A stretch of 24,000 nt of DNA from an uncultured Oscillibacter sp. (GTDB lineage: Bacteria > Bacillota > Clostridia > Oscillospirales > Oscillospiraceae). The stretch covers positions 1 to 24,000 of the forward strand of contig UQUC01000026.1 in NCBI GenBank assembly GCA_900544105.1. Direction: 5' to 3'. The position numbers were made by a program, and so were the translations under genes. The notes under the pieces were generated by a model, which had not been told where the DNA came from, did not search any database, and saw nothing but the letters and a program-made list of their open reading frames with translations. Numbering within the stretch: position 1 is the stretch's first letter; the number at the start of each line of letters is the position of its first letter. This document shows positions 978 through 20,565 of this stretch, piece by piece.

Positions 978-1418
978 TCACTCCTGTCCGCGCTCCTCCA
1001 TATACTTAAACACTTCTTTATCGGATTTAGCCCTTTTATACCAACCAATGCCTATCATAACAAAGCCAACAATCATTACTACAGTCCTAATTGTTGACGC
1101 TGACGAGAGGAAGCAAGAGGCAACAAGTCCTGTACCAGCACCCGTAAAGAAGTCTACGAGTGATTTCTCATACTTTATTTTTCCCAATACGCGCTCCTTG
1201 TCAATAGCTTTTACCATTTTGGAATCCCCCTTCAGTAATGTATCAAGCGATACATCAAATTGATTGCTCATTGCTATGAGAATCTGTAAATCCGGATAAC
1301 TCTTTTCGTTTTCCCAATTCGAAACCGTCTGTCTTGTAACATGGAATAACTCACCAAACTGTTCTTGCGTTAATTGCTGCTCATTACGAATTGCTGATAT
1401 TTGATTTCCTATGCTCAT
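978..1418 (-). CDS. XRE-family helix-turn-helix regulator with C-terminal transmembrane segments (146 aa)
   Basis: MSIGNQISAIRNEQQLTQEQFGELFHVTRQTVSNWENEKSYPDLQILIAMSNQFDVSLDTLL is a classic HTH_3 (Cro/CI-type) pattern. The C-terminal half has hydrophobic stretches (GLVASCFLSSA..., VVMIVGFVMIGIGWY). Start trimmed to ATG 1418, which has GGGAG upstream. The gene is visibly AT-rich compared with its neighbours. Confidence 0.8.
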   Translation of the reverse strand: MSIGNQISAIRNEQQLTQEQFGELFHVTRQTVSNWENEKSYPDLQILIAMSNQFDVSLDTLLKGDSKMVKAIDKERVLGKIKYEKSLVDFFTGAGTGLVASCFLSSASTIRTVVMIVGFVMIGIGWYKRAKSDKEVFKYMEERGQE

Positions 1419-1610
1419 GGTCAGCACCAACTCCCTCTCTGAAAAGAATTTACTACGACCTTGCTTCTTGTCTACTATTATGTAAGAAAAACAGCGCAAA
1501 GTAAAGCAATTTACTTTTTACATTGCGTTTTTCGTGTGGTTAAGTAGGTTTCGCAAATTCTTTTCGACAAACTCGAAGGCAATTCAACAACAGCGAATTA
1601 TAGAAAGATG

Positions 1611-1879: not shown

Positions 1880-3502
1880 TTACTCTACCTCCTGCTCTTC
1901 TGCCGCACAGGACCCATCCTGCAACTGGCATTCACCGTTGTCATCGTCCTCACGGACATAGTTGCTGAAGGCCAGCAGCGAGTCTTCCTGCGGCGCAAAC
2001 TCCGGCTTCATAGAGCAGACCGTTTCCCAGTGTACCTTCGGCTTCGAGAACGAAAGGAGCGACATATATCCCATCGCGTGAGGCGGCTTGTCGCAAGAAG
2101 GCTCCTCGGCAACAGGGACGCTCTCCGTCTGCATCGTGTAGACAACGAGAGCCGCAACCTTGTCGCTGTAAAGAGCCCGCGCACGCAGCCGTTCAAAGCT
2201 GTACCCGTTCCCCATGCGGCTCATGTCCTCCACCATCCGGTTCAAGCCCTCCGTTACGGCATTGGTAAAGCGGCGGTTGGGTTCAAAGTAATTGAAGATT
2301 TCCTCGTGCCACTTCCTCGTGAGGGTGTTCTTGGCCGAACGAAGGTCGTCAAACAGCTCCGGCTCCACCTCGAACCGCTTCTTCCATGCCTCGATTTGAC
2401 GGCAGCCGGAGGGAGGGATAAGCTCCGCCCATTCCTTGCAGTATGCCTCCGCCGTCTTGCGGTCAGGGGCGGTGTAGATGCGGTCAAAGCGTTCCTTGAT
2501 AAGCCGCAGATGGTTGAACTCAGGGAAAGTCGCGCAGATATTTGCCATTGCGCTGATACGCCTCTCACTCTTGGCGAGATTCTTGGCGTTGAACTTGAAC
2601 AGATAGGTGTTCGTCTGGGCGAGGTTCCGCACCGCAATCATGCGCTTCTTTGCGCCGCCCTCCGGCTCCGCTTGGATGAGGGCGCCGATATAGGCCATGA
2701 TTTTGCTGCGGGCCTTGGCGATTTTCTCATAGACGGACTGGCAGACATGGAACTTGTCCACGACGATGGCGGCATTGGGCAAGCACTCCTGCACATAAGT
2801 ACGGTAGCCACAGGACATATCCATCGTTACGACCTCGATATTGGTGTCGTAGCCGACCATGCTCTCAATGGCTGCAATGACGGTATCCTTCTTGTTATCG
2901 GGACACATCTCCAGCAGAACACGGTTCTCAATGTCTGTAAAGATGGCCCGCATATTATGGACAATGTGCTTTTCATCAATGCCCAATACGCGGGGAGCGA
3001 TAACAGGGCCATGGGCTGACGCCAACTCTTTGGAATACTCGTCAAAAATTTTGCCGATGATAGTGTCGGAATAGCCGTATTTCAGGGCGACTGTACTCAG
3101 CGGCTTGGTAAACGCCTCGTGTCTGATTTCGTCATAAAGCCGCCTTGTCAAATGCCGGCTCTCCATAATGTCCGGCGATGGCGGGGAAAAGGACCTTCCG
3201 CATTCGCTACAGATGTACCGTTGCACCGTCAGGTCTATATCGACCTTCGTGCGTCCGCTGTTGACATCGTGAATGCGGCGCGGAGCCCCTGTTTGGCCGT
3301 GTGCGTGAACGGCGGTACTGCCGCAGAAACGGCATTTTCGGTTTCGGTAGTCCTCCACATGGCAGGAGAACAGTAAGTAAGGATGCCCTGCCTTGGGCCG
3401 ATAGCAGGCATCTTCAATTATGCCGCGCAAATTCAGGTGCGGAATGGGAATGACCTCCTCCATATCATCCGGAGTCAGTCGAATGTGATTCACAGTCTTC
3501 AT
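1880..3502 (-). CDS. ISL3-family DDE transposase (540 aa)
   Basis: It has an N-terminal zinc-finger-like CRFCGS...CSECG. The DDE region shows LGIDEKH, VTMDMSCGY and TNAVTEGLNRMVEDMSRMGNGY, an ISL3-typical TNAxxEGxN motif. Start trimmed to ATG 3502 (MKTVNH), which has GAGAGG upstream. It has a roughly 90-aa acidic C-terminal tail beyond ...LRARALYSD. Confidence 0.85.
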   Translation of the reverse strand: MKTVNHIRLTPDDMEEVIPIPHLNLRGIIEDACYRPKAGHPYLLFSCHVEDYRNRKCRFCGSTAVHAHGQTGAPRRIHDVNSGRTKVDIDLTVQRYICSECGRSFSPPSPDIMESRHLTRRLYDEIRHEAFTKPLSTVALKYGYSDTIIGKIFDEYSKELASAHGPVIAPRVLGIDEKHIVHNMRAIFTDIENRVLLEMCPDNKKDTVIAAIESMVGYDTNIEVVTMDMSCGYRTYVQECLPNAAIVVDKFHVCQSVYEKIAKARSKIMAYIGALIQAEPEGGAKKRMIAVRNLAQTNTYLFKFNAKNLAKSERRISAMANICATFPEFNHLRLIKERFDRIYTAPDRKTAEAYCKEWAELIPPSGCRQIEAWKKRFEVEPELFDDLRSAKNTLTRKWHEEIFNYFEPNRRFTNAVTEGLNRMVEDMSRMGNGYSFERLRARALYSDKVAALVVYTMQTESVPVAEEPSCDKPPHAMGYMSLLSFSKPKVHWETVCSMKPEFAPQEDSLLAFSNYVREDDDNGECQLQDGSCAAEEQEVE

Positions 3503-3603
3503 CGTGGTATACCTCTCAAATTCATCAAAAATAATGTGCCGGGGAAATGTATTCAAATAATTGATGAAGACTACGCTATTTACTTTTGGTATACCGTGAC
3601 CAT

Positions 3604-3632
3604 AGAATAGCACAAATGTTCTGTTCGCGCAA
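3604..3632 (-). promoter_or_regulatory. Candidate sigma-70-type promoter for the transposase
   Basis: The minus strand reads TTGCGC - 17 nt - (TGC)TATTCT, with an extended -10 TGn, about 95 nt upstream of ATG 3502. Confidence 0.45.
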
Positions 3633-3690
3633 GGGGGTTGCAAAAATTTTCTGTTTTCGGTAGATTTTGGAATAAAAATGATGAATTATG

Positions 3691-3718
3691 TTGCGAATTG
3701 AAAAATGTGTGCTATAAT
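3691..3718 (+). promoter_or_regulatory. Candidate sigma-70-type promoter for the hsd operon
   Basis: TTGCGA (3691-3696) - 16 nt - TGCTATAAT (extended -10; TATAAT at 3713-3718). It is divergent from the transposase promoter. Confidence 0.55.
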
Positions 3719-3749
3719 GAAAATGTCGAAGACTACAGAGAACTTCGAT

Positions 3750-3791
3750 GAGAAACGGGCCCGTTTCTCATCCTTTGCCTTGGCAAAGGAT
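3750..3791. promoter_or_regulatory. Two adjacent perfect palindromes in the hsdM leader (candidate operators or RNA hairpins)
   Basis: GAGAAACGGGCCCGTTTCTC (3750-3769) is a perfect 20-bp palindrome. It is directly followed by ATCCTTTGCC-tt-GGCAAAGGAT (3770-3791). Both lie between the predicted TSS (~3725) and the hsdM start (3853). Confidence 0.5.
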
Positions 3792-3852
3792 GATTCTCTT
3801 CTGTACGCAGGCATGGATGAGGAATTGGCCGTCATTGGAAAGGATGGAGCAC

Positions 3853-5634
3853 ATGACGACCAGTAACGAACGCATTGCATCTACCGGCAAGAATATACAG
3901 GAAAAAGCCAACTTAATTTGGAATGTGGCAAACACCCTCTTTGGCGCGTTTAAGCCCCATGAGTACGGACTCGTCATCCTGCCGATGGCGGTCATCAAGC
4001 GGTTCCACGACTGCCTGCTGCCGACCCATCAGGCAGTGCTGGACAAGTACAAGGAGGTGCAGCACCTCGCCGTGAAGGAGGGCTTCCTCTGCGCCGCCTC
4101 TGGCTACCAGTTCTATAACATCAGCCCATTTACCTTCGAAACGCTGAAAGCGGACCCCGAAAACATCAATGAGAATTTCCGCGCTTTCCTGAACGGCTTT
4201 TCTGACAATGTGCAGGACATTTTGGCGCGGATGAACTTCCACGCCCAAATCGACCGCATGGAGGAGGCCGGTCTGCTGTATCAGGTTATCGTGGACTTCT
4301 GCTCCGAGCAGGGCGATATGCGCCCCGAAAAAATCAGCGCAGTGGATATGGGCTATATCTTCGAGAACTTGGTGCAGCGGTTCTCCGAGTCCTACAACGA
4401 GGAGGCCGGAGCGCACTTCACCAGCCGCGATATTATCTATCTCATGTGCGACCTGCTGGTCAGCAATGCAAAATTTGATGGGGACGGCATCTCCAAGACG
4501 GTTTACGACATGACGATGGGCACCAGCCAGATGCTCACCTGCATGGAGGAACGGCTCAAGCAGTTGGACGCCGATGCGGATGTCACCTGCTTCGGGCAGG
4601 AGCTGAATCCCTTTACGTTTGGCATCGCCAAGGCGGATATGCTCATTCGCGGCGGCGACCCCGACAATATGCAGTTTGGCAACACGCTGGACGATGATAA
4701 ATTCAGCGGGTATCAGTTCGATTACGAAATTTCTAACCCGCCCTTCGGTATCGACTGGAAGCGAGAGGCCCCCAAGGTCGAGGCGGAGCATAAAAAGGGC
4801 GGCGCGGGGCGTTTTGGACCCGGTCTGCCCAGCAAGAGCGATGGACAGATGCTGTTCATGCTCAACGGACTTGCCAAGCTGAAGCCGGATGGCCGCATGG
4901 CTATCATCCAAAACGGCTCGTCCCTGTTCACCGGCGATGCCGGCTCCGGGCAGAGCGAGATTCGTCGCTATCTCATTGAAAACGACTGGCTGGACGCTAT
5001 TGTTCAGTTGCCCAACGACAGCTTTTATAATACCGGAATCGCCACTTATATTTGGATTATCACCAAGGACAAGCCAGAGGAGCATATCGGCAAGGTGCAG
5101 CTTATCGACGCCAGCAAGTGCTATGAGCCCCGCCGCAAATCCATCGGTAACAAGCGTGTGGACATCACCGATGTCTGCCGCGAGCTTATCGTCAAGGCCT
5201 ACGGCGCATACGCGGACCACACCTACCAGCGGGAGCTGGAGTCCGGCGCACATATCGTCTGCAAGAGCCGCGTGCTGGACAGCGTCAGCCTTGGCTACAA
5301 CAAAATCGTAGTAGAAACGCCGGAGATGGACGAGAACGGGCAGCCGGTACGCAAGCGTGGAAAGCCCGTGGCGGATACCTCCAAGCGGGACACGGAGAAT
5401 GTGCCGCTGGACGAGGACATGGACTCCTATCTGAGCCGTGAGGTACTGCCCTATAACCCCCATGCATGGATTGACAGGAGCAAGACCAAGGTGGGCTATG
5501 AAATCCCCTTCACCCGCACCTTCTATGAATACAAGCCCATTGAGCCTGCCGCAGAGATTGCCAAGCGCATCGAGGCCCATGAACAGTCGTTGATGCAGAA
5601 GCTCCACGACCTGTTCGGGAAGGATGGTGAGTGA
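3853..5634 (+). CDS. hsdM: Type I restriction-modification system, DNA methyltransferase subunit M (593 aa)
   Basis: The N-terminus LIWNVANTLFGAFKPHEYGLVILPMAVIKRF is HsdM-N-like. There is a SAM motif DMTMGTSQM and the catalytic NPPF in EISNPPFGIDWK. It is followed by hsdS. The start could be ATG 3844 or 3853; 3853 has better AAGGA spacing. Confidence 0.9.
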   Translation: MTTSNERIASTGKNIQEKANLIWNVANTLFGAFKPHEYGLVILPMAVIKRFHDCLLPTHQAVLDKYKEVQHLAVKEGFLCAASGYQFYNISPFTFETLKADPENINENFRAFLNGFSDNVQDILARMNFHAQIDRMEEAGLLYQVIVDFCSEQGDMRPEKISAVDMGYIFENLVQRFSESYNEEAGAHFTSRDIIYLMCDLLVSNAKFDGDGISKTVYDMTMGTSQMLTCMEERLKQLDADADVTCFGQELNPFTFGIAKADMLIRGGDPDNMQFGNTLDDDKFSGYQFDYEISNPPFGIDWKREAPKVEAEHKKGGAGRFGPGLPSKSDGQMLFMLNGLAKLKPDGRMAIIQNGSSLFTGDAGSGQSEIRRYLIENDWLDAIVQLPNDSFYNTGIATYIWIITKDKPEEHIGKVQLIDASKCYEPRRKSIGNKRVDITDVCRELIVKAYGAYADHTYQRELESGAHIVCKSRVLDSVSLGYNKIVVETPEMDENGQPVRKRGKPVADTSKRDTENVPLDEDMDSYLSREVLPYNPHAWIDRSKTKVGYEIPFTRTFYEYKPIEPAAEIAKRIEAHEQSLMQKLHDLFGKDGE

Positions 5635-5635
5635 T

Positions 5636-6943
5636 ATGACGCCTACTGTGGGTTATACGGAGATGAAGGACAGCGGTATCGAGTGGGTGGGCATGATTCC
5701 GAAAGATTGGGACATCAACATTCTCTTCCAACTTGTTTCTCAGGTAAAAAACAAAAACAAAGATTTGACAGAAACCAATTTATTGTCTTTGAGTTACGGG
5801 AAAATCAAAAGAAAAAACATCGACCATACAGATGGTTTGATTCCTGCTTCATTTGACAGTTACAACATTATTGATACCGGGGACATTGTTCTGCGACTCA
5901 CTGACCTTCAAAATGACCAAACGAGCCTTCGTGTTGGACGCTCAACCGAAAAGGGAATTATTACTTCTGCTTATATAACATTGCGCCCCGTCAATCTCAA
6001 AACATCAAAATTTCTTTACTATTTGCTTCATGCGTTTGACATCAGAAAAGGTTTTTATGGAATGGGGGCAGGCGTGCGGCAAGGACTTACCTATGATGAG
6101 GTCAAAGTTCTGAAACTACCGCTTCCATCCATATCAGAACAAACCGCCATCGCTACATATCTCGACACACAGTGTGCCAAAATTGACGAAATTATCGCCG
6201 AAGCCAAGGCCAGCATTGAGGATTACAAGCAGTGGAAGGCATCCATCATCTACGAAGCCGTCACCAAGGGGATTGACCCCAATGCAGAGATGAAGGATAG
6301 CGGGATTGAGTGGGTTGCCAAGATTCCTGCACGGTGGCATAAAGGAAGAGTCAGCCAAGTTGCAAATGCTTATAATGGGGACCGTAGCAGTAACTATCCA
6401 AGCGGGAGCGATATTGTTAGCTCCGGAATATCGTTCTTGACATCTAACAATTTAGGCCAGATTAAACTTAATACGGATATTCAAACAAACAAGTTTATTA
6501 CATCAGAGAAATACCATTCCCTTAGAGGGGCAAAACTGCAAAAAGACGATATTGTATTTTGCTTACGCGGGAGTGTCGGAAAATGCTCTATAAACAAAAC
6601 GCTAACAGAAGGAAGTATTGCTTCATCCCTCATCTTGATTAGGCCTGTTGGAATAAATCCTGATTACCTTAATTATGTACTTCAAAACAGTGCCATAACC
6701 GAAACAGCAGTTATTTCGGCGATTGGTATTGGTTCGCTCAACCTTTCGGCGGAGAATATCATGAGTTTTTCTATTCCACTTCCTTCATTGGATGAACAGA
6801 AACGTATTGCCCAGTATTTAGATGAAACCTGTAGTTACCTTGATGACATTGTGTTAGAAAAACAACTCTTAATTGCAGACCTCGAATCTTACAAAAAATC
6901 TCTAATCTACGAAGTCGTAACTGGGAAAAGGAGGGTGTGCTGA
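5636..6943 (+). CDS. hsdS: Type I R-M specificity subunit S with two target-recognition domains (435 aa)
   Basis: An internal duplicated conserved segment is present: EMKDSGIEWVGMIPKDW and EMKDSGIEWVAKIPARW. Conserved helical spacers are ...QWKASIIYEAVTKG... and ...YKKSLIYEVVTGKRRV. Two AT-rich variable blocks (TRDs) lie between the GC-richer conserved blocks. The start could be 5624 or 5636. Confidence 0.85.
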   Translation: MTPTVGYTEMKDSGIEWVGMIPKDWDINILFQLVSQVKNKNKDLTETNLLSLSYGKIKRKNIDHTDGLIPASFDSYNIIDTGDIVLRLTDLQNDQTSLRVGRSTEKGIITSAYITLRPVNLKTSKFLYYLLHAFDIRKGFYGMGAGVRQGLTYDEVKVLKLPLPSISEQTAIATYLDTQCAKIDEIIAEAKASIEDYKQWKASIIYEAVTKGIDPNAEMKDSGIEWVAKIPARWHKGRVSQVANAYNGDRSSNYPSGSDIVSSGISFLTSNNLGQIKLNTDIQTNKFITSEKYHSLRGAKLQKDDIVFCLRGSVGKCSINKTLTEGSIASSLILIRPVGINPDYLNYVLQNSAITETAVISAIGIGSLNLSAENIMSFSIPLPSLDEQKRIAQYLDETCSYLDDIVLEKQLLIADLESYKKSLIYEVVTGKRRVC

Positions 6944-7494
6944 TGGGTGTAAATATTGATGCAAAGGATAATGCGGCTACGGTCAAAGTTATACCCTACA
7001 AGTCTATATGCGTATTTGTCTTAATTGTTGACGGAGTTTTATTATTTGCCCCAGAAAATGTTGTTGCTGCGCTGGGGCTTAACCAAGTGCGTGAAACCAT
7101 CAAACCCTACTTAGGCATTCTGTTTCTCTGCGCGGCTGCGATTTTGCTTATTGATGTTGGCGGCGGCTGGATAAGGCGTAAAGTAACCGTTTCGCGGTAT
7201 CGTGGAAAAAACGCAAAACGAATACTGGATAGATTGAGTAAACGTGGCAAACAGGTTGTACGAAGGATGTATGAGTCAGAAAGCCATACGGCATACCTGT
7301 CAATCACGGATGCGACAGCAACTTATCTGCAGCGTTCGTCTATTATTGGGCAAACAACCGCAAGTAACAACGGCGAGTATTTTGACCGCTATTTACAGCC
7401 GTGGGTCGTTGAATATCTTGATAAGCACCCAGATTATCTGAGGGAAATGCCTGAGCCAGATGAAGGTGCATTTGAGTGTGAAGGAGAATTCTAA
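6943..7494 (+). CDS. 2-TM membrane protein, superinfection-exclusion (SieB-family)-like (183 aa)
   Basis: The ATG overlaps the hsdS stop (TGATG), with GGAGGG 8 nt upstream. There are two N-terminal TM helices (ICVFVLIVDGVLLFA; ILFLCAAAILLIDVGG). These are followed by a basic linker and a soluble C-terminal domain (...LSKRGKQVVRRMY...YLSITDATATYLQRSSIIG...YLQPWVVEYLDKHPDYL). This architecture matches my recollection of Pfam SieB-family proteins. The family call is recall-based, not searched. Confidence 0.5.
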   Translation: MGVNIDAKDNAATVKVIPYKSICVFVLIVDGVLLFAPENVVAALGLNQVRETIKPYLGILFLCAAAILLIDVGGGWIRRKVTVSRYRGKNAKRILDRLSKRGKQVVRRMYESESHTAYLSITDATATYLQRSSIIGQTTASNNGEYFDRYLQPWVVEYLDKHPDYLREMPEPDEGAFECEGEF

Positions 7495-7495
7495 A

Positions 7496-7948
7496 ATGCC
7501 AGATAGTACAAAGCCAAATGTGACCCATCTCGGATATATCCAATCAACTATTACAAGAATGGGGCAAAACGCATTTCAAGCAAAAGCGTGGTGCATCACC
7601 ATCATCACCGCACTCCTCGTTTTTTATTTGGAAAAGGCATCTAATGCCTCAAAATACGCAACTATCTATATTGCACTCGGAGTGGTTGCGCTGTTCTGCG
7701 CTCTTGATACATATTATCTTTACCTTGAGCGCGGCTACCGTAAGCTCTACAGAGTCGCAGCAAAACTGGAAGTAGAATCCGAGCCGCTTCCCGATTTTGA
7801 AATGCAAATCCCCCAAAATGCGCGTGGTATTGTGCAATATGGTAAGGCGTTTCTTTCGGTATCTACAGGCCTGTTCTATGGCGTAATCATGCTTTTGCTA
7901 ATCATCTTGTGGCTGTGTACTAATGCTGCAGATACACCTTCCGTGTAA
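7496..7948 (+). CDS. Small 3-TM membrane protein (150 aa), candidate membrane effector
   Basis: ATG 7496 lies 8 nt after GAAGGAG and 1 nt after the previous stop. Hydrophobic helices are AWCITIITALLVFYL, YATIYIALGVVALFCALDTYYLYL and LFYGVIMLLLIILWLC. No enzymatic motif is visible. Confidence 0.7.
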   Translation: MPDSTKPNVTHLGYIQSTITRMGQNAFQAKAWCITIITALLVFYLEKASNASKYATIYIALGVVALFCALDTYYLYLERGYRKLYRVAAKLEVESEPLPDFEMQIPQNARGIVQYGKAFLSVSTGLFYGVIMLLLIILWLCTNAADTPSV

Positions 7949-7966
7949 GAGAAAGGAGGATGCTTT

Positions 7967-8554
7967 ATGGCGTCTAAGGTTTTTGTGTCCTATAAGTTTG
8001 CGGACAATAATGTGGCGTATTTATACTCACCACTTTATTCCCCCTATTCATATACCAGCACAACCGCACGTTCATATGTGGATGATTTTAAGCGCCGAGC
8101 CGAAAATGAAGGGTGCATAGTTTATAAGGGTGAGAGGGCGGATGAGGATTTGTCTTATCTCAGTGATGATACGATTTGGCAAAAGCTGAGAGACCGGATT
8201 TATGACAGCACCGTTACCGTAGTATTTATTTCTCCTAATATGCGGGAAAAATACCGGAGTGAACGCGACCAATGGATTCCTTGGGAAATTGCTTTTTCCC
8301 TGCGTGAAACTACGAGGAACGACAGAACAAGTCACTCGAATGCGTTGATATTCGTTATTCTGCCGGACAGAAACAATAGTTATGACTACTATTCCACAAT
8401 GAGGCATTTCAATATTGTTGCCAGCAATATTCGGAATGGTTATGCCGAGGTTGCCTATTGGAGTAACTTTGTAACAGATATACAAGGGCATATTAGTAGA
8501 GCTCTTTTACGGAAGCAGATAGTCTCGCCGAATGAGGTAGTAAAGACAGTGTAA
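7967..8554 (+). CDS. TIR-like domain protein (DUF1863 / ThsB-like), 195 aa
   Basis: It opens with [12 protein letters not shown], the TIR beta-A pattern 'hFhSY'. It also has [10 protein letters not shown]...[15 protein letters not shown], matching the 'S.W(I/V).WEI' motif typical of MTH538/DUF1863 TIR-like proteins. AAGGAGG sits upstream of the ATG. Confidence 0.7.
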
Positions 8555-8560
8555 GGAGGT

Positions 8561-8580
8561 GCCCGATAATGCCCGATAAT
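8561..8580 (+). repeat. Perfect 10-bp tandem duplication (GCCCGATAAT x2) spanning the hsdR start codon
   Basis: Read directly: GCCCGATAAT GCCCGATAAT G. The hsdR ATG (8569-8571) is formed across the junction of the two copies. Confidence 0.9.
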
Positions 8581-11500
8581 GAAAAGCAATTTGAACAGGA
8601 TATTGAGACCTTTCTGATTTCCCCTGCCGGTGGCTGGCAGAAGGCCTCAGACGCCGGCTACCGTGCGCCGGAAAGCGCGGGTATGGCGCTGGATATCCGC
8701 ACCCTGACGACCTTCGTAAAAGCCACACAGCCCGTGGCGTGGCAGCGGCTGGAGAAGCAGAGCGACGGCAACTCTGAAATGAAATTCTACAAGGCGTTCG
8801 AAAATGCCGTGGAGAATGACGGCCTTATTTCTGTGCTGCGGCACGGCTTTAAGCACCGTGGCATCGACTTCCACGTCTGCTACTTCAAGCCGGAGTCCAC
8901 GCTGAACGATGTGTCGTTGCAGCACTATCAGCAGAATATCTGCCAGTGTATCCGCCAGTGGCACTACTCGGAAAGCTGCGGCAACAGTGTGGACATGATG
9001 CTGGCGGTCAACGGTATCCCTGTTATCGCCATCGAACTGAAGAACCAGCTTACGGGGCAGAACATCGACAACGGCAAAAACCAGTGGATGTTCTACCGCG
9101 ACCCCAAGGAGCCGGTCTTCCGCCTGAACCACCGCATTTTGGCGTTTTTCGCGGTGGACCTGTACGAAGCCGCCATGACTACAAAACTGGATGGTGCCAA
9201 GACCTTTTTCCTGCCCTTCAATCAGGGCAGCAACGGCCCCGGACAGAACGGAGGCGCAGGCAATCCGACCAACGCAGACGGCGATTATGTGACATCTTAT
9301 CTTTGGAAAGAGGTGCTTCAGAAGGATAGTCTGCTGGACATTTTGCAGAAGTTCATCAGCTTCCAAGTGAAGAAGGAGAAGATTCGGCTGAAGGACGGCT
9401 CCGAAAAGGAAATCCTCAAGAAGTCCGTTATTTTCCCGCGTTATCATCAGATGGATGTTGTCCGAAAGCTGGTGGGTGATGTGCGGCAGAACGGCTCCGG
9501 CCACAACTACCTCGTACAGCACAGTGCCGGCTCCGGCAAGTCCAACTCTATCGCTTGGACGGCCTACCGGCTGGCAAGTCTTCACGATGCGGACAACAAG
9601 CCCATTTTCAGCTCCGTGGTCATTGTGACAGACCGCACCGTGCTGGACGCCCAGCTTCAAGAAACGATTTCCGGCTTTGACCATACGCTCGGCTCCGTTG
9701 TGACCATCGGCGAGAAGATGAACTCCCGCGACCTGCGGGATGCGCTCAACGCCGGCAAGCGTATCATTGTGACCACGCTGCAGAAGTTCCCCGTTATCTA
9801 TGAGGAAGTGGACGATACAAAGGGTAAGGCGTTTGCGGTCATCGTGGACGAGGCCCACAGCAGCCAAACGGGGCACAGTGCCATGAAGCTGAAAATGGCA
9901 CTGGCGGATACCCATGACGCGCTGAAGGAATATGCCGATATCGAGGGCAAGGCGGAGGACGAGATGGAGGACACCGAGGACAGCCTTGTGCGGGAGCTTA
10001 TCACCCACGGCAAGCACAAGAATCTGAGTTTCTTTGCCTTCACCGCCACGCCGAAGAAAAAGACGCTGGAGATGTTCGGCGAGGAACACGCAGACGGCAC
10101 ATTCCATCCATTCCATATCTACTCCATGCGACAGGCCATAGAGGAGGGCTTTATCCTCAATGTGCTGGAGAACTACACCACCTATAAAACCTGCTTCCAA
10201 ATCGCCAAGAATACGCCGGACAACCCCGAAGTGCCTACCATCAAGGCAATCAAGACCATTCGGCGCTTCGAAGAACTGCATCCTCATAACTTGCAGCAGA
10301 AAGCGGCCATCATCGTAGAGACCTTCCGTGATGTGACAAAGCGCAAAATCGGTGGCAGGGGCAAAATGATGGTGGTCACGGCGTCCCGCTTGGCGGCGGT
10401 GCGTTACTACCATGAAATCAAAGCGTATTTAGATGCCAACCACTATGATGATGTAGAAATCCTTATCGCATTCTCCGGAAGCATCCGCGACCCCGAAGAG
10501 AAAAGCGGCCACGAATACACCGAAAGCGGCATGAACATGGACCGTGACGGTAATCACATCTCCGAGAGCCAAACCAAGCAGGTGTTCCACGACGAGGGCG
10601 ATGTGCTTATCGTAGCGGAAAAATATCAGACCGGCTTTGACGAGCCGCTGCTGCACACGATGATTGTGGATAAGAAACTGCGGGATGTGAAGGCCGTGCA
10701 GACTCTGAGCCGCCTGAACCGTACATACCTCGGCAAGGAGGACACCTATATCCTCGATTTCGTGAACACCAAGGAGGAAATCCTCAAGGCGTTCCAGCCG
10801 TATTATCAGGAGACAAGTCTGTCCGAGGAAATCAATATTGACCTTATCTACAAGGCGCAGAAGCAGCTCCGCGACTTCCGCGTGTATAATAACGACGATG
10901 TGGAAGCTGTTAGCAAGATTTATTTTTCGCCGGAAGCCAAGAAGGTGCAGACCACACAGGCAAAAATCTCCAATGCGCTGCTGCCCATCGCACGAGCCTA
11001 CAATCAGTTAAGCAAGGACGACAAATACCAGTTCAGGCGCACCATCCGTTCCTTTGTGAAGTGGTATAACTACATCTCCCAGATTGTGCGGATGTTTGAT
11101 AAGGCACTCCACAAGGAATATCTGTTCTGTTCCTATTTGGCACGTCTGCTGCCGGCAGAAACGGCTGCTCCGTGGGACTTGGAGAACCGCGTAAAGCTGG
11201 AGTATTACCGGCTGGAAAAGACCTTTGAGGGAGCCATAGAGTTGGAGGACAAGGATGTTCCGCTGGAACCTGAGCGGACAAAGAAGGCAGTCAATATGAA
11301 CACCAAGAAAGACCCGCTGGAAACGGTTATCGAGGCCATCAACGAGGTGTATAAGGGTTCCTTTACAGAAGCAGACCGCGTCCTCATTGGTACGCTGCGT
11401 GAAAAGTTGCTGGCAGACAAGAAACTCCGAAAAGCCGCAAAATCCGATGGACAACAGATTTTCGAGAAAAATGTGTTCCCCAAGGTGTTCAACGACACCG

Positions 11501-11646
11501 CGCAGGCATCCTATATCGAAAGCACGGAAACCTACACCAAACTCTTTGAAGATGGTGCCAAGTACCGCGCAATTATGACGGCACTGGCACAGGAACTATA
11601 CCGCGAAATGCGGAACGAGCGGGAGGATGACCATGCCAAGGGCTAA
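8569..11646 (+). CDS. hsdR: Type I restriction endonuclease subunit R (1025 aa)
   Basis: The N-terminal PD-(D/E)xK-like nuclease region is ...[20 protein letters not shown]. Helicase motif I is [14 protein letters not shown] and motif II is [12 protein letters not shown] (DEAH). The later motif [17 protein letters not shown] is present. AAGGAGG lies 9 nt upstream. Confidence 0.9.
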
Positions 11647-11800
11647 AAAAGATGGACAGCATCTGAACTGCTACATTGACCGCGTCCTCCGCGAAAGGTT
11701 GGAGGACTACGCCGAAGAGAAAGGACAGACGCTGACCATGGCTGTTGAGCGGCTTCTGACGAAAGCCCTCGATGCCGAAGAAAAGAAAGAGGACAACTAA
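11633..11800 (+). CDS. Small ribbon-helix-helix (CopG/Arc-like) protein, 55 aa (below the ORF-track cut-off)
   Basis: Hand translation gives [55 protein letters not shown]. It overlaps the hsdR 3' end by 14 nt. The strand-helix-helix pattern is LNCYID / [13 protein letters not shown] / [15 protein letters not shown] strong terminator follows. Confidence 0.55.
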
Positions 11801-11806
11801 AAAAAG

Positions 11807-11839
11807 AATCTGGCGTCCAAACAGGATGCCAGATTTTTT
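11807..11839 (+). terminator. Rho-independent terminator ending the hsd operon
   Basis: AATCTGGCGTCC-aaaca-GGATGCCAGATT forms a 12-bp stem with one G-U pair, followed by TTTTTT. Confidence 0.8.
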
Positions 11840-11866
11840 CGTACTTTTTGTTCACTCGGAGGAAAA

Positions 11867-12002
11867 CCCACACAAAAATTGGAAGAAGTCGCTCACCCGA
11901 AATTGGGGGTAAAAACTGAAATCCCACAGAAAAGTTGGAAGGAATCGCTCGGTCGAAATGAGGGTTGAAAAGAAAAATCCCACACAAAAGTTGGAATAAC
12001 CC
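11867..12002 (+). repeat. Three direct repeats with an exact 56-bp period; the last (truncated) copy is the right terminal inverted repeat (IR-R)
   Basis: Units start at 11867, 11923 and 11979 with CCCACA(C/G)AAAA(A/G)TTGGAA.... Units 1 and 2 are 42/56 identical by hand alignment. Unit 3 (11979-12002) is the inverted partner of 1-24. Confidence 0.8.
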
Positions 12003-12016
12003 GGAGCTGACCTCTA

Positions 12017-12044
12017 TTGACATAGATATTAATGAGGATATCAC
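12017..12044 (+). promoter_or_regulatory. Candidate promoter for the downstream six-gene operon
   Basis: A perfect TTGACA (12017-12022) - 16 nt - TATCAC (12039-12044) lies immediately outside IR-R. The -10 element is weak. Confidence 0.3.
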
Positions 12045-12114
12045 AAAGGAAATTGCCTCCGGCATATGGACGGAGGTTTATGACGACTGCGCCAGCGGAC
12101 GGATCTATCTGAAT

Positions 12115-12366
12115 ATGTGGGAAATCTGGGAAGGGATCAATCTGGTTGGCTTCCCCAAGGGCGCACCGAATCCCCGCCGGGTGGAGGACCCGCTGAAATG
12201 GATCCTCTGGCGGCTGGGAAGGATCGGCCCCTATTTTCAGGCGGATCCTCAGCCGAAAAAGGCGCTGCTGGAGTCTGCAAGGAAATATCAGGGGCGGCTT
12301 GACGACTGGATGAACGAACAAAGGTGCAAACAAGAGCGGTTTTATAACGGGGAGGATCTCCAATGA
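12115..12366 (+). CDS. Hypothetical small protein (83 aa from first ATG), possibly the 3' remnant of a longer gene
   Basis: The track ORF 11965-12366 begins at a TTG inside the 56-bp repeats, which is implausible. The first in-frame ATG is 12115. The stop overlaps the next start (ATGA at 12363-12366). Confidence 0.4.
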   Translation: MWEIWEGINLVGFPKGAPNPRRVEDPLKWILWRLGRIGPYFQADPQPKKALLESARKYQGRLDDWMNEQRCKQERFYNGEDLQ

Positions 12367-14543
12367 AAATGGAGCAGGCATGCCGGTTCCGGACGGATGA
12401 AGCCGGATATATGGTCTGCGCCAGATCCCAGGGTCTGACGGCGGATAATGAAAACAACCTCGGCTATTTCAACAGTACCATGACGTCCTTGTTTGAAAAG
12501 GACGGATCCGGCCCGAGAATGGGTCAGTCTATCCTCAGCTACGCTGTCAGCGAGGAGAACGGCGGCAGGCGGCTGGAGGAGGACCCGTTTGTTGCGGAGC
12601 TTTTCCGGTATCTGGCATCTGCCGCCCCGGAGGAGCGCCGCCAGATGCTGCTGGATATGCAGTATATTTTGGGGGAGCTGGTGCCGCTGGAGTATGCGTC
12701 ACTGGAGATGATCGCCACCGCATATCACATGCGGAAGATGAACGATGGAAACCGGCCGGAAAATGACGTGTATGACCGCGTGGTGGGGAATCTGCTGCTT
12801 TGCGGCAGGGTTCCGTCGGCAAACCAGGAGACGGTGAACAAGCTCCTGATCTGGATGCTGAAAAGGCAGAACGCTGCGCTGCCCAAGCGGATTATGGAGC
12901 TGTCTGTGGACCGCTGCGTCAAACAGGTGCAGGCGGATGCGGCAGGCGGGCGGGAGCTCTGCGACTGTGTTTGCCGTCTTTTGCAGTACAGCAGAAGCGC
13001 TGAGCAGCTGGAGCTGCTGCAGAAAACGGTGAAAACCTTCGATGTGCGCTATGCCGGGCTTGTGCATGCCCTGCTGCGCGGCATCTTTTCGGACCGGGCA
13101 TGCAGCATTGACCCGCAGACGGCGTGCAGTCTGATCCCGGAGATGCTGCGCTCCGGCGATGAAATGCTGACCGGGGATTGCGTGGAGCTGACCACCTGCC
13201 TGGATGCAGGGCAGTGCCGGCAGCTGGCAGAGAGCATTCTGCGGCATGTGGGGCTCCGCCAGATGACGCTGATGGAGCAGAACGTTCTGGCCAATATCCT
13301 GGACGAGCTGAGCCGGTCCGGCGGTGTGCTGGGAAAAGAGAGCTGTGAGATCCTGGACCGCAATTCCTGCGTTTATAACGGCAGACTGCTGGATGCCTGC
13401 GTGGGCTATATGGTGCAGGTGCGGCTGCGGCAGGAGCTTCCCGTGGAGGAGCGCTGCGCGCTGCTGGCCGGGCTGGAACGGGAGTATCCGGCCCTGTATG
13501 ATGACGTTGCGGCTGCGCTGAAGAGCGGCGGCAGCATCCTGTGGAAGAAATATCAGATTCACAAGCATCTGCAGAATTGCAGATGCTATGAGGACATTGT
13601 GGCTGCGCGCCGGAGCTATCAGGGGGCGTCCCCCATGGACGATTTTGAACAGGAGTGTGTTGCTCTTTGGATGCAGCTCCTGCGCAGGGATGTCTATCAG
13701 GGGATGCCGCTGAAAAACCTGGTGCCGCAGATGGGACGCGCAGTCGATGCGCTGCCCAGAGGCGTATTCTCGCTGGAGGCCGCTCATGAGCTGCAGCGGC
13801 GGCAGCGGGCCTATTTCTGGAGCTGCATGACCTATCGCACAATGATGGACTATGTGTTGGACGGCGCGCCCAGCAGCAATGTGCAGGCGCTGCTTCAGAC
13901 CCGGGACAGCGGAGCGGATGGCAATAAGCTGCACTTTCTGGATGCCGTGTGGCAGCTGTACCGGGATCCGAGCCGGACTGAGCCGATGACAGAGCTGGTG
14001 CTGGACGGACACCTGCCTGCCAGGGACAGGGAGGAGATCTGCAATCAGCTGCTGCCGCTGGCGGCAAAGCTGAAAGCTGCCTCCAACCAGGCAATTTTCG
14101 CATGGGATCTGATGCTTCTGTCCTGCAGCCGGGTGGAAGCCGGACGGGTCGTTTATGACTGCGGCAGTCTGATTAAGAAAATTGAGGGGATTCCGGCGCT
14201 GAAAATGGGAGTTTCCGGCAGCCAGTCTCTCCAGCTGGAGCATTCCGTCATACTGCGGGACGAGAAGGTGCGCAGCGACCTGCGCAAGGCCGCCGGCCGC
14301 GGCGACAGTCTGCTCAGTGAGCAGCTGGAAAAGACGCTGAAGGCGTGGGGAAAGGCGCGCAGGCCCGACAATGGCCACGGGAAAAGACTGAGCTCTGATC
14401 CGCCGGCCGCGGAAAAGAAGGGGTTATTCTCTATTTTCGACCGCAGCGACAGAGGCGGGCGGACGGAGAAGTCGGACCGGGGCTTTATTTTTGACGACTA
14501 CGACGGCGACTCGGGAAAAAGAGGAAGGAATAGGAGAAGATGA
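12363..14543 (+). CDS. Large uncharacterised, probably all-alpha protein (726 aa) with a charged, low-complexity C-terminal tail
   Basis: GGGGAGG lies 9 nt upstream and G/C third-position bias is strong. The composition is rich in L/A/R/E/C. I see no Walker A or other enzymatic motif. The tail is ...DRSDRGGRTEKSDRGFIFDDYDGDSGKRGRNRRR. Confidence 0.75.
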   Translation: MKMEQACRFRTDEAGYMVCARSQGLTADNENNLGYFNSTMTSLFEKDGSGPRMGQSILSYAVSEENGGRRLEEDPFVAELFRYLASAAPEERRQMLLDMQYILGELVPLEYASLEMIATAYHMRKMNDGNRPENDVYDRVVGNLLLCGRVPSANQETVNKLLIWMLKRQNAALPKRIMELSVDRCVKQVQADAAGGRELCDCVCRLLQYSRSAEQLELLQKTVKTFDVRYAGLVHALLRGIFSDRACSIDPQTACSLIPEMLRSGDEMLTGDCVELTTCLDAGQCRQLAESILRHVGLRQMTLMEQNVLANILDELSRSGGVLGKESCEILDRNSCVYNGRLLDACVGYMVQVRLRQELPVEERCALLAGLEREYPALYDDVAAALKSGGSILWKKYQIHKHLQNCRCYEDIVAARRSYQGASPMDDFEQECVALWMQLLRRDVYQGMPLKNLVPQMGRAVDALPRGVFSLEAAHELQRRQRAYFWSCMTYRTMMDYVLDGAPSSNVQALLQTRDSGADGNKLHFLDAVWQLYRDPSRTEPMTELVLDGHLPARDREEICNQLLPLAAKLKAASNQAIFAWDLMLLSCSRVEAGRVVYDCGSLIKKIEGIPALKMGVSGSQSLQLEHSVILRDEKVRSDLRKAAGRGDSLLSEQLEKTLKAWGKARRPDNGHGKRLSSDPPAAEKKGLFSIFDRSDRGGRTEKSDRGFIFDDYDGDSGKRGRNRRR

Positions 14544-15589
14544 GCGACAGCGTGATGTATCCGGAAGCCGGCCGCTGGGTCAACAGCTACCTGGTGGGCG
14601 CCAACGCCTACAAAATTATGTCGACCCCCGAGGAGGCACAGCAGCTGCTGCTGGACGATAGCGAGGACTTTCTGCAAACAGGGACGGAGCGCCACTATAT
14701 TCAGGTGCGATGCCGGAACGAGAATAAACCGCTGTGGCTGGTGCCGTTCCGGGTCAAGCGGGAGGAGTTGCTGCGGGTATCCGACGTGCTGGAGCAGATT
14801 CAGATGGGACGAATCCTGCGGGAGGGCTTTTTCTGGCCGTTCGATCTGGTCCGGAGCGATGAAATGCAGGGATATGTGCTGCATCCCTTCAGCATGGATG
14901 CGTATCCCTCTGTCCGCCGGTTTTTGCCCAGCTCTGACACGCCCAGGTGGACCATTGCCGTCCATCTGTTCCGCAGGATCGGGCAGCTGCACCGTGAGGG
15001 CCTGACGCTGAACGGCTTTGGCAGGGATCAGGTGCGCGTGGAGTATGGGACAAACCAGGTGTATCTGGTTCCGGGTGAAACAATTTCTCGGGTTTCGCAG
15101 CTCGGCGCGGCCTTTCGCGGCGACTTTCTGTCTGTGCCGCAGGTGGTGGAGCAGCAGCTGGAGAAAAATGGCATCGTGCTGGACGGGTGCGTGCGCGACA
15201 TATTCTCGGCAGCGGTAATTGCCTTTTATCTGCTGTTCTATACCCATCCTTTCATCGGGGAGGAGTACAGCCACCTGATGCGGGAGCAATATCTGGAATA
15301 TTTTCAGAGTCACCCGGTGTTTCTGTTTGACGCCGGAGGGCACAATGGAACGGGACATCATCAATTCGGCGCGGAGATAACGGCCCAATGGTGGAGAGCG
15401 CAGCCGGAGCTGCGGCAGCTGTTTTCAGATTTCTTTGCGGCGCTGTGTGCAGGACAGATCGATGAAAATGCCCCGTGGAATGACACGGAGAACTGGATCC
15501 GCTGCCTTCTGGAGGATGCAGCCGTGAACGATAACGATAAGAGCCGCACAAGCTACGAGCTGGAGCTGGAAAAATTCCATCTGGTCTGA
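14540..15589 (+). CDS. Protein-kinase-fold protein with degenerate catalytic motifs (putative pseudokinase), 349 aa
   Basis: The ATGA overlap couples it to the previous gene. The C-lobe-like signature is DGCVRDIFSAAVIAFYLLFYTHPFIGEEY (compare 'D.wSlG..ly.ll.G..PF'). The catalytic-loop position reads LHREGLTLNGFGRDQVRV rather than H-R-D-x-K-x-x-N. The DFG position reads VYLVPGET. Confidence 0.6.
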   Translation: MSDSVMYPEAGRWVNSYLVGANAYKIMSTPEEAQQLLLDDSEDFLQTGTERHYIQVRCRNENKPLWLVPFRVKREELLRVSDVLEQIQMGRILREGFFWPFDLVRSDEMQGYVLHPFSMDAYPSVRRFLPSSDTPRWTIAVHLFRRIGQLHREGLTLNGFGRDQVRVEYGTNQVYLVPGETISRVSQLGAAFRGDFLSVPQVVEQQLEKNGIVLDGCVRDIFSAAVIAFYLLFYTHPFIGEEYSHLMREQYLEYFQSHPVFLFDAGGHNGTGHHQFGAEITAQWWRAQPELRQLFSDFFAALCAGQIDENAPWNDTENWIRCLLEDAAVNDNDKSRTSYELELEKFHLV

Positions 15590-15599
15590 GGGGTAAGGC

Positions 15600-16562: not shown

Positions 16563-16575
16563 GGGGAGGCACAGT

Positions 16576-17313: not shown

Positions 17314-17331
17314 CATAAGGAGGAGAGAGAT

Positions 17332-19981: not shown

Positions 19982-20065
19982 AATAGTTGCCTCCTCAAAA
20001 ATTGTTCCAAGATTGTTCAAAATCGAATGGGTAGATGAAATTTGCTCATACCCCCATCCGTTCTG

Positions 20066-20094
20066 ATAATAACACCATTCCGGCAAATACTCAA
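20066..20094 (-). promoter_or_regulatory. Candidate promoter for gdhA
   Basis: The minus strand reads TTGAGT - 17 nt - (TGT)TATTAT, with an extended -10, about 85 nt upstream of the gdhA ATG. Confidence 0.45.
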
Positions 20095-20376
20095 GGGGGT
20101 TATTCCGAAAATCGTCCCTCGCGACCGTAAAATCTTCGCGGTGTTTTTTGTGCATTTTGTAAAAATGCACATTCCCTCCTTTGCACCCGGCAGCCGCCGC
20201 AAATTGTGGATTCCGGCCTATTTGATGATTATTTCACAATTTCGCGATACAGACTCTTTCGCCCGCAAAATTACCGGTATCCCGACTTTGTAGATTTTTT
20301 TTTAGGGATTCCGGCCTGGCCCGGCTGGCTTTTTCGGAATCCTGCACATTTTTTGCCGCTGGAGCTAAAATTTCTG

Positions 20377-20522: not shown

Positions 20523-20565
20523 CTTTACCCGGAAGCATTGGAACAATTCAAAAGGAGGAACACAC

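Follow-up and report, generated by a model that had tools for sequence, protein, structure and literature searches.

Two adjacent genes of an uncultured Oscillibacter sp., carried in a stretch of 24,000 nucleotides (contig UQUC01000026.1; hereafter the window), very probably constitute a type V Thoeris anti-phage system, thsF-thsB, which would be co-transcribed with the genes of a type I restriction-modification (RM) operon and act through the mechanism proposed below. The first-pass annotation of this DNA had proposed that the two ORFs, of 150 and 195 aa and both indeed present, couple a Thoeris-like TIR signal generator to a small transmembrane (TM) effector, and this is supported by the full-length homology of the TM protein to ThsF, by the pairing of the two genes and by the conservation of Glu107 in the TIR protein. 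It had also regarded such a pair as poorly described biology. However, the system is already known: it was catalogued as the PADLOC candidate PDC-M50, and then named type V Thoeris (ThsB/ThsF, signal 3'cADPR) and partly characterised by Yirmiya et al. (bioRxiv 10.64898/2025.12.03.692087, Dec 2025).

Table 1. Positions in the window of the operon genes, of their putative transcription signals and of the flanking transposase
Feature	Positions	Strand	Remarks
ISL3-family transposase, operon flank	1880..3643	-	Pfam DDE_Tnp_ISL3 E=9e-37
Best sigma-70-like promoter match	3691..3718	+	TTGCGA-16-TATAAT with TG extension, 10/12; upstream of hsdM; consensus match only
hsdM, type I RM methyltransferase	3748..5634	+	Pfam N6_Mtase E=6.4e-52, HsdM_N E=1.7e-19
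hsdS, type I RM specificity subunit	5624..6943	+	Pfam Methylase_S, two stretches
SieB-like gene	6943..7494	+	183 aa from ATG 6943; Pfam PF14163 SieB E=2.1e-20, positions 2-147 of 147
thsF-like effector gene	7496..7948	+	150 aa from ATG 7496; N-terminal amphipathic helix and three TM helices; ORF and RBS
thsB	7967..8554	+	195-aa TIR-like signal-generating enzyme; predicted catalytic Glu107 in QWIPWEI motif
hsdR, restriction/translocase subunit	8569..11646	+	Pfam HSDR_N, ResIII, SWI2_SNF2, T1R_D3-like
Best intrinsic-terminator-like hairpin	11803..11839	+	16-pair stem then T-run; downstream of hsdR; consensus match only

The assignment to type V is carried by the membrane protein. It aligns over its full length with the validated B. 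thuringiensis DAR 81934 ThsF (BLASTP E=1e-19, 30% identity in 148 aligned columns; hhalign probability 99.9%, E=5.5e-36), and the hydropathy peaks of the two proteins fall at the same positions. The gene for this reference ThsF lies at 3773-4198 of its locus (L034), adjacent to the gene for P0338, whose sequence equals that of the published ThsB (100% identity). Both membrane proteins match the PADLOC PDC-M50A models, at E=1.9e-31 for the window protein and 1.8e-48 for that of B. thuringiensis. A GAAGGAG Shine-Dalgarno sequence stands 9 nt before the ATG of the thsF-like gene; the ORF list also holds a longer form of 162 aa, which starts at 7460 and overlaps the upstream gene. Three hydrophobic segments (about residues 29-45, 52-73 and 121-143) were found in a Kyte-Doolittle scan and the AlphaFold2 model (pLDDT 93.4) has helices at 7-46, 50-88, 112-119 and 122-145, in agreement with the three hydrophobic helices of the first reading. 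Within the family R21, K30, W32, D71, Y74, L75, E78, Y85 and Y128 are conserved, and the polar residues common to the window protein and B. thuringiensis ThsF are R21, K30, W32, D71, E78, R82 and Y85. The conserved R21, K30, R79 and R82 are compatible with the basic pockets between protomers of the heptameric channel in the published AlphaFold3 model of ThsF (bioRxiv 10.64898/2025.12.03.692087). Homologues of the TM protein number 71 at cluster level, the family found by profile comprises 5,091 50%-identity representatives (E<=1e-3), and the TIR protein has 1,471 homologues; the conservation of both genes is well beyond chance.

The window TM protein has no match to PF10028 (DUF2270) with HMMER. 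Matches occur in 14 of 40 close family members and in 3 of 76 distant ones, and reach only E values of about 0.003-0.05, under the 25-bit cut-off. Since the validated B. thuringiensis ThsF itself lacks a PF10028 match, both by HMMER and among precomputed ones, this model does not discriminate type V membership; we dropped it as a criterion and used the direct comparison with the validated ThsF instead. The 'DUF2270' label rests on the more sensitive annotation of Yirmiya et al. Weak recurring Pfam matches to 8xMP, DUF3278 and Ac76 all lay under their own cut-offs and were left uninterpreted. The kinship with SLATT or Pycsar-TM effectors that had been suggested earlier found no support: Pfam gave no SLATT family, at thresholds of E<=1 or E<=0.01, in either the window protein or any of 114 homologues, the PADLOC RTasSLATT model reached only E=0.086, and no Pycsar model was matched in PADLOC or Pfam.

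The 195-aa protein is a TIR protein of the ThsB type, as had been read from the motif KVFVSYKF and a second motif of 15 residues, both of which it contains. It scores 30.4 bits on Pfam PF08937 ThsB_TIR (cut-off 21.2; E=5.5e-7) and matches the PADLOC ThsB model PDLC00428 at E=1.2e-52. Its AlphaFold2 model (pLDDT 86.8) matches PDB entry 9vyl, 'BdThsB1 with NAD' (Foldseek E=1.4e-16, TM 0.82), which is also retrieved by phmmer (E=2.1e-42) and is the closest solved relative by both structure and sequence. The molecule in this entry is called 'Putative cyclic ADP-D-ribose synthase TIR1' and, going by these names, is probably TIR1 of B. dafuensis; a literature search under the name BdThsB1 returned no paper. 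The glutamate of the WEI motif, singled out in the first-pass annotation, is indeed conserved: Q102, W103, I104, P105 and E107 are invariant in 45 of 45 homologues. In an hhalign comparison of the TIR family with the 98-aa B. cereus ThsB domain, which was not significant (probability 3.5%), QWIPWEI falls opposite RWVRYEI, where the published glutamate E85 of B. cereus ThsB lies; we take this as a pointer only. Longer members of the family (about 222 aa) carry a Cys-rich insertion of about 30 residues which is missing from the window protein. The thsB gene is preceded by AAAGGAGG.

The two genes keep company in other genomes. Among 30 genome loci found with the TM-family profile (L001-L030), a TIR gene adjoins the TM gene in 23: the two abut or overlap in 13 (L001-L012 and L016), a divergent TIR gene stands 218 bp upstream of the TM gene in one (L019), and nine cyanobacterial loci have a convergent TIR gene immediately downstream of the TM gene, four of these being detected by phmmer at a distance of 13 bp and five more by Pfam. 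Furthermore, in all eight further loci, fetched through close homologues, a thsB homologue is directly downstream of thsF. A Terribacillus plasmid also carries a TIR gene with a TM gene, whose product matches the family profile at 3.6e-46. The paired TIRs belong to at least five unrelated subfamilies. A single TM family that teams up with so many kinds of TIR shows the modularity to be expected if the two parts communicate through a shared diffusible signal. Downstream of the relatives of B. thuringiensis ThsB on B. cereus and Priestia plasmids (L031 and L032) we found no ThsF-like ORF; these genes belong to other Thoeris contexts, in which the neighbours are of the SIR2 or Macro kind.

The interval from hsdS to hsdR is occupied by the pair and by a SieB-like gene, the operon having the order hsdM-hsdS-sieB-like-thsF-thsB-hsdR. 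The type I RM system is complete by Pfam, with HsdM, HsdS and HsdR all present; the true start of hsdM is probably an internal ATG, because its homologues have 594 aa. The hsdS stop overlaps the start of the SieB-like gene, and the successive gaps are -1, +1, +18 (thsF to thsB) and +14 nt, hsdR starting 14 nt past the thsB stop. This spacing, with the promoter candidate and the strong terminator-like hairpin of Table 1, lets us infer that the pair is co-transcribed with the RM genes. HsdM and HsdR are 95-99% identical to their L036 counterparts, whereas HsdS is only 36% identical. In the window and in eight related loci with an identified upstream gene, thsF-thsB comes directly after hsdS, and one of these eight is a type I RM system of a different family (HsdM only 25% identical). 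The cargo of the related RM operons varies: a SieB-like gene, a GNAT gene, and genes for unknown proteins of 120, 322 and 422 aa. Because the pair recurs there with other variable cargo, the hsdS-hsdR interval appears to be a compact slot for exchangeable defence genes, one that deserves mining. The earlier statement that SIR2, SLOG and Macro domains are absent holds: scans of the six operon proteins and of 20 further window ORFs matched neither SIR2 nor SLOG, and no Macro domain turned up in the operon or the other scanned window ORFs. No NCBIfam family covers the three embedded proteins, and megablast of positions 6900-8600 against E. coli genomes gave no match. Both the RM operon and the SieB-like gene had been missed as context in the first-pass annotation. 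The ISL3 transposase is likewise a neighbour in L036-L039 (96% identity).

The proposed mechanism is drawn from the homologous B. thuringiensis DAR 81934 system which, cloned as two genes, defends B. subtilis, its ThsB making 3'cADPR upon infection (bioRxiv 10.64898/2025.12.03.692087). Cells are poisoned by added 3'cADPR only if they carry this system, the Tad1 sponge blocks its defence, and both infection-dependent 3'cADPR and 3'cADPR-triggered toxicity are established for this system only (bioRxiv 10.64898/2025.12.03.692087). By analogy, the window ThsB would sense a phage infection cue and, through Glu107, cleave NAD+ and cyclise ADP-ribose into a signal, most probably 3'cADPR (1''-3' glycocyclic ADPR). 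This signal would bind ThsF, which is predicted to assemble into a homo-oligomeric ring whose ligand pockets, between protomers, are basic, and bound ThsF would open or disrupt the membrane, thereby stopping growth before the phage cycle is completed (abortive infection). In this scheme the phage trigger, the nature of the signal and the oligomerisation and gating of ThsF are inferred, whereas the analysis shows the homology of both proteins, the conserved catalytic motif, the TIR fold, the 3-TM topology, the gene pairing and the operon anatomy. The RM enzyme may act as a first line of defence, with Thoeris and the SieB-like protein as independent second lines encoded by the same operon.

The window pair shares with the published type V systems the two-gene operon of a TIR gene and a 3-TM effector gene, and its TIR is 49% identical to IMG 2512524509, a member of the subfamily that Table S1 of Yirmiya et al. 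places under 'DUF2270 - Type V'. It differs in gene order (thsF-thsB here, thsB-thsF in B. thuringiensis), in lying within a type I RM operon alongside a SieB-like gene, and in its TIR, which is from another cluster than either validated type V ThsB. No defence was seen with a Paenibacillus operon that has a TIR from the cluster of the window TIR, nor, in E. coli, with a Vibrio type V system (bioRxiv 10.64898/2025.12.03.692087). The RM context of type V is absent from the main text of that study (bioRxiv 10.64898/2025.12.03.692087), where the word 'restriction' has 0 occurrences.

Could the same architecture run on another chemistry? The signal might be 2'cADPR, canonical cADPR or another ADPR derivative, or ThsF might receive a second, infection-derived input, and this we regard as possible, though doubtful. 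Bacillus sp. 1NLA3E has a type V system that is defensive, yet is not triggered by added 3'cADPR (bioRxiv 10.64898/2025.12.03.692087). The signals of Thoeris types X and XI are unknown, and the window ThsF has only 30% identity with the validated one. Moreover, the sequence of the window TIR shows no relation to that of the B. thuringiensis type V ThsB, BLASTP finding no similarity beyond a WI..EIA motif. Against another chemistry, the polar residues of ThsF listed above are kept in the window protein, and the nearest characterised TIR, TIR1/BdThsB1, comes from a type I system, in which the TIRs make the ThsA-activating isomer. Another alternative, raised in the first-pass annotation, makes the TIR itself an NAD+-depleting NADase effector, the TM protein being a sensor, an anchor, a regulator or an unrelated neighbour. 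Many bacterial TIRs are indeed NADase effectors (CBASS, Pycsar, pAgo, SpbK), and Pfam recognises no ligand-binding domain in the TM protein. However, in the validated homologous system a small molecule triggers toxicity when added to cells that carry it and a 3'cADPR sponge blocks defence, the association of the TM family with many unrelated TIR subfamilies is unlike a specific protein-protein sensor, and the window TIR is of the ThsB type, its closest characterised relative being a signal producer. We thus hold this alternative to be quite improbable.

The position of the pair invites other readings, in which the embedded genes would serve the type I RM enzyme, either as accessory or regulatory subunits or as a guard firing upon its inhibition, rather than form an autonomous Thoeris system. 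The recurrence of the pair directly after hsdS, even in a different RM family, speaks in their favour, as does PrrC, a precedent for a suicide effector embedded in a type I RM operon: it is regulated by its RM host and fires when the RM complex (EcoprrI) is inhibited. On the other hand, the TM and TIR genes are paired without any RM gene in L003-L012, L016 and L033, as well as in the validated B. thuringiensis locus, which defends as two genes, and the embedded TgvAB works independently of HsdR; a role as RM subunits or guard alone is therefore very improbable in our view. A functional wiring of the Thoeris pair to the RM system in this gut-Clostridia lineage, as a guard triggered when anti-restriction proteins disable the Hsd complex or through coupled expression, would explain the location of thsF-thsB directly after hsdS even in an unrelated RM family, but we find it unlikely. 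In a weaker variant, this ThsB subfamily would signal to ThsF with a molecule other than 3'cADPR. The type V Thoeris reading, with the pair as autonomous cargo, has parallels: PrrC and TgvAB (Vibrio cholerae VPI-2) are also independent defence genes lying between hsd genes and apparently co-transcribed with them. These differ in activity, PrrC being an anticodon nuclease and TgvAB a type IV restriction system, whereas the window cargo would be a signalling abortive-infection system with a SieB-like gene.

Other known systems resemble the pair in part. PDC-M50 (PADLOC-DB v2; Payne et al., bioRxiv 10.1101/2024.01.29.577857), whose PDC-M50A models match the window TM protein and the validated ThsF alike, is a bioinformatic candidate without assigned function, and our literature search returned no paper describing it. 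B. dafuensis TIR1 of type I Thoeris senses phage and makes a ThsA-activating cADPR isomer. This type provides the closest relative of the window TIR (BdThsB1, 9vyl), but its effector ThsA is a SIR2-SLOG protein that depletes NAD+, and no effector of the ThsA type was found in the window. Types VII (ThsH) and II (ThsC, Macro and TM) also couple a TIR-made signal, canonical cADPR and His-ADPR respectively, to an oligomerising, membrane-disrupting effector; the SLATT and Macro domains of these effectors are not matched by the window TM protein. Pycsar combines a pyrimidine cyclase with a TM effector of its own; the window operon has no cyclase, and Pfam and PADLOC gave no match to a Pycsar model.

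The importance of the window pair is modest overall. Homology to ThsF now allows a TM protein that is devoid of Pfam annotation and lies beside a TIR-like gene with a weak score to be placed in type V, and type V Thoeris is thereby extended to gut Clostridia and to the inside of type I RM operons with variable cargo. With its distinct ThsB subfamily, the pair would be suitable for examining whether 3'cADPR is the signal of every type V system.

The SieB-like protein has two N-terminal TM segments by hydropathy and a basic C-terminal domain. It matches the whole PF14163 profile of the SieB superinfection exclusion protein; the known SieB is prophage-carried, whereas the window gene is chromosomal, inside an RM operon and not conserved with the Thoeris pair. 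Indeed, it is found at 81% identity in L036-L039 but is missing from L040-L043 and from all 30 profile-found loci, which rules it out as a third Thoeris component and leaves it as a candidate for a separate, embedded abortive-infection gene.

Finally, the cyanobacterial ThsF homologues have a conserved Nudix partner. Such a partner, which receives no mention in the Thoeris paper (bioRxiv 10.64898/2025.12.03.692087), may point to an accessory that clears or processes the signal.

The two small genes set within the type I restriction-modification (RM) operon very probably encode a ThsB/ThsF pair of the type V Thoeris family, acting through a TIR-made signal and a membrane effector. Type V Thoeris was defined in a December 2025 preprint (Yirmiya et al., bioRxiv 10.64898/2025.12.03.692087) as ThsB, a TIR protein, with ThsF, a three-TM effector annotated DUF2270. 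The novelty claimed for the pair in the first-pass annotation is therefore not supported, while its reading as a Thoeris-like TIR/TM pair is supported by full-length homology to ThsF and by similarity to the TIR IMG 2512524509. In the same preprint, the system of B. thuringiensis DAR 81934 protects against phage, synthesizes 3′cADPR in an infection-dependent manner, renders added 3′cADPR toxic and is inhibited by the Tad1 sponge; its ThsF is modelled by AF3 as a heptameric channel with basic inter-protomer pockets.

At the B. thuringiensis locus (L034), protein P0338 matches the published ThsB sequence at 100% identity, and the gene 3′ of it encodes the validated ThsF. The window TM protein and this ThsF align end to end (30% identity, BLASTP E=1e-19; hhalign 99.9%, E=5.5e-36), with hydrophobic segments at matching positions and R21, K30, W32, D71, E78, R82 and Y85 in common, and both match the PADLOC candidate models PDC-M50A (E=1.9e-31 for the window protein, 1.8e-48 for ThsF). 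Hydropathy places three hydrophobic segments at about 29-45, 52-73 and 121-143, and a confident AF2 model (76-sequence alignment, pLDDT 93.4) is all-helical, with helices 7-46, 50-88, 112-119 and 122-145. The family comprises 71 close clusters and 5,091 representatives at 50% identity (profile, E<=1e-3); its conserved positions (R21, K30, W32, D71, Y74, L75, E78, Y85 and Y128) are mainly polar and lie mostly on the N-terminal helix and the TM2 extension, E78 being the sole invariant one in the broad set. Pfam and NCBIfam scans assigned the window protein to no family, and Pfam PF10028 (DUF2270) reaches only E of about 0.003-0.05 with family members. Of the type V features compared, this label alone is missing from the window protein; the validated ThsF likewise falls short of it, so PF10028 is unusable as a test of membership.

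The ORFs, coordinates and motifs of the first-pass annotation agree with our ORF calls and the raw sequence, and the glutamate of its WEI motif is indeed conserved: Q102, W103, I104, P105 and E107 do not vary among 45 aligned homologues of the window TIR, out of 1,471 found at E<=1e-3. This protein scores 30.4 bits with Pfam ThsB_TIR (PF08937, cut-off 21.2) and matches a PADLOC ThsB model strongly (E=1.2e-52). Its AF2 model (pLDDT 86.8) resembles PDB 9vyl, 'Crystal structure of BdThsB1 with NAD' (Foldseek E=1.4e-16, TM 0.82), and residues 1-142 match the same chain by phmmer (E=2.1e-42); the molecule is named 'Putative cyclic ADP-D-ribose synthase TIR1', and the two names point to TIR1 of Bacillus dafuensis. 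With IMG 2512524509, which Table S1 of Yirmiya et al. places in TIR cluster 2742576382 under 'DUF2270 - Type V', the window TIR shares 49% identity (E=4e-45). BLASTP finds the window TIR unrelated to the B. thuringiensis type V ThsB; since the ThsF proteins are homologous, the effector is shared and the TIR swapped.

How the pair works had been left between a SLATT/Pycsar-like TM effector and a TIR that is itself the effector. No SLATT or Pycsar family matched the window TM protein or 114 homologues. The second possibility is disfavoured by the pairing seen in 30 loci from species-representative genomes that the TM-protein profile retrieved. In 13 of them (L001-L012, L016) a TIR gene directly adjoins the TM gene or overlaps it, and L019 has a divergent TIR gene 218 bp upstream; nine cyanobacterial loci have a convergent one just 3′ of the TM gene, either 13 bp away (L014, L017, L022, L025; phmmer) or found by Pfam (L021, L023, L024, L027, L028). 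The ORF 3′ of the TM gene in L030 also gives a TIR_2 match, and the seeds used found no TIR in L013, L015, L018, L020, L026 and L029. These TIRs fall into at least five subfamilies, which parallels the many type V TIR clusters in Table S1 of Yirmiya et al. The combination of a single effector family with exchangeable TIRs suits a design based on a diffusible signal and argues against the TIR as effector. Some loci contain runs of multiple TIR genes and multiple ThsF-like genes: five TIR-like ORFs lie within 4.5 kb with one ThsF-like gene in L004 (Ignatzschineria sp. F8392), and L007 and L010 (Poribacteria) carry two ThsF-like genes each, resembling the multi-ThsB Thoeris islands of Yirmiya et al.

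Within the type V reading, we lean modestly towards 3′cADPR as the signal, because it is the molecule to which the validated ThsF responds, and because the isomer that activates ThsA is produced by the TIR's closest characterised relative. Against this, one type V system of Yirmiya et al. is not triggered by 3′cADPR, and the TIR-ThsF combination of the window is a predicted pairing. By analogy with the systems of that study, ThsF would form a ring and would be gated, and phage would trigger the system.

The operon consists of six closely packed plus-strand genes, with intergenic gaps of -1, +1, +18 and +14 nt. A Shine-Dalgarno motif precedes each embedded gene in the raw sequence (GAAGGAG 5′ of 7496, AAAGGAGG 5′ of 7967). 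This packing, together with consensus matches to a promoter and a terminator, suggests a single transcription unit. The G+C content is about 42-44% in hsdS and the three embedded genes vs 54-57% in hsdM and hsdR.

Features of the window and of related loci
Locus	Feature	Coordinates	Strand	Remarks
Window	HTH_3 regulator	978-1499	-	flanks RM operon
Window	ISL3-family transposase	1880-3643	-	flanks RM operon
Window	promoter-like site	3691-3718		top in 3400-12300; just 5′ of hsdM; 10/12 plus TG extension
Window	hsdM	3748-5634	+	Pfam N6_Mtase, HsdM_N
Window	hsdS	5624-6943	+	Pfam Methylase_S
Window	SieB-like gene	6943-7494	+	ATG 6943; PF14163 E=2.1e-20
Window	TM-protein gene (ThsF-like)	7496-7948	+	150 aa; PADLOC PDC-M50A
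Window	TIR-like gene (ThsB)	7967-8554	+	195 aa; PF08937, PADLOC ThsB
Window	hsdR	8569-11646	+	Pfam HSDR_N, ResIII, T1R_D3-like
Window	terminator-like hairpin	11803-11839		top in 3400-12300; 3′ of hsdR; 16 pairs plus T-run
Window	five ORFs, packed or overlapping	12363-18477	+	726, 349, 320, 245, 381 aa
Window	weak P-loop-like PADLOC match	15600-16562		
Window	transglutaminase-related lipoprotein NF045980	17332-18477		sub-threshold, 47.6 bits vs cut-off 450
Window	Glu/Leu/Phe/Val dehydrogenase	18629-20170	-	housekeeping
Window	amidohydrolase	20485-21909	+	housekeeping
L004	ThsF-like gene and TIR-like ORFs	5911-10427		
L017	Nudix	5355-5897		
L017	ThsF-like	5869-6414		
L017	ThsB	6427-6972	-	
L034	validated ThsF	3773-4198		141 aa
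L036	hsdS	4248-5447		
L040	422-aa protein	6174-7442		no Pfam match
L041	120-aa protein	3416-3778		between hsdM and hsdS
L042	322-aa protein	6150-7118		no Pfam match
L043	120-aa protein	3413-3775		between hsdM and hsdS
L043	124-aa GNAT-like protein	6017-6391		

The RM setting and the SieB-like gene had been overlooked in the first-pass annotation. All eight loci fetched via close homologues (L036-L043; ThsF identity 48-83%) carry thsF-thsB directly 3′ of hsdS in a type I RM operon. One of them (L042; hsdR-hsdM-hsdS-thsF-thsB) belongs to another type I RM family, its HsdM being only 25% identical and its neighbours OLD/UvrD-type genes. The variable embedded genes of L040, L041 (same contig as L001), L042 and L043 are possible further defence cargo. 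In L002 a 392-aa ORF with no Pfam match lies directly 5′ of thsF, and HsdS-like and HsdR-like fragments occupy opposite contig ends. More distant members (L003-L012, L016, the plasmid locus L033 and the B. thuringiensis locus) lie outside RM operons. Defence genes embedded in type I RM operons are already known (TgvAB, PrrC), so the context is a nice example, not a new principle. What remains new is the position immediately behind hsdS across the lineage, the SieB-like gene embedded alongside and a ThsB subfamily that is a candidate for type V pairing.

The SieB-like protein has two TM segments and a basic C-terminal domain, and no PADLOC model covers it. Among the related operons its gene is confined to L036-L039 (81% identity), and it thus looks like a separate embedded abortive-infection candidate, of superinfection-exclusion type. 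Between the window and L036, HsdM is 95.5% and HsdR 98-99% identical vs only 36% for HsdS, so variation is concentrated in mid-operon. Identity climbs stepwise from HsdS via the SieB-like protein (81%) and ThsF (83%) to ThsB (95%). Such a gradient resembles the outcome of replacement by recombination with hsdS at its centre.

In 14 cyanobacterial loci (L014, L017, L018, L020-L030) a conserved Nudix hydrolase gene (about 179 aa; PF00293 E=3e-12, Nudix box REVYEETGY) abuts or overlaps the ThsF-like gene on its 5′ side, usually followed by the convergent TIR as ThsB_TIR alone, TIR_2+EAD7, TIR_2+FGE-sulfatase or TIR_2+GUN4. The word 'Nudix' is absent from the main text and the searched supplements of Yirmiya et al. 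This partner could be an accessory that degrades or processes the signal.

The ORFs immediately 3′ of the defence operon (about 60% G+C, strong positive GC skew) match no Pfam, PADLOC or NCBIfam family apart from the two weak hits in the table, and look like an uncharacterised operon; housekeeping genes occupy the far end of the window. The ISL3 and HTH genes also flank the near-identical operon in L036-L039, where different genes follow downstream (Tex, CysS or ribosomal protein S20), which suggests a cassette located at differing genomic places.
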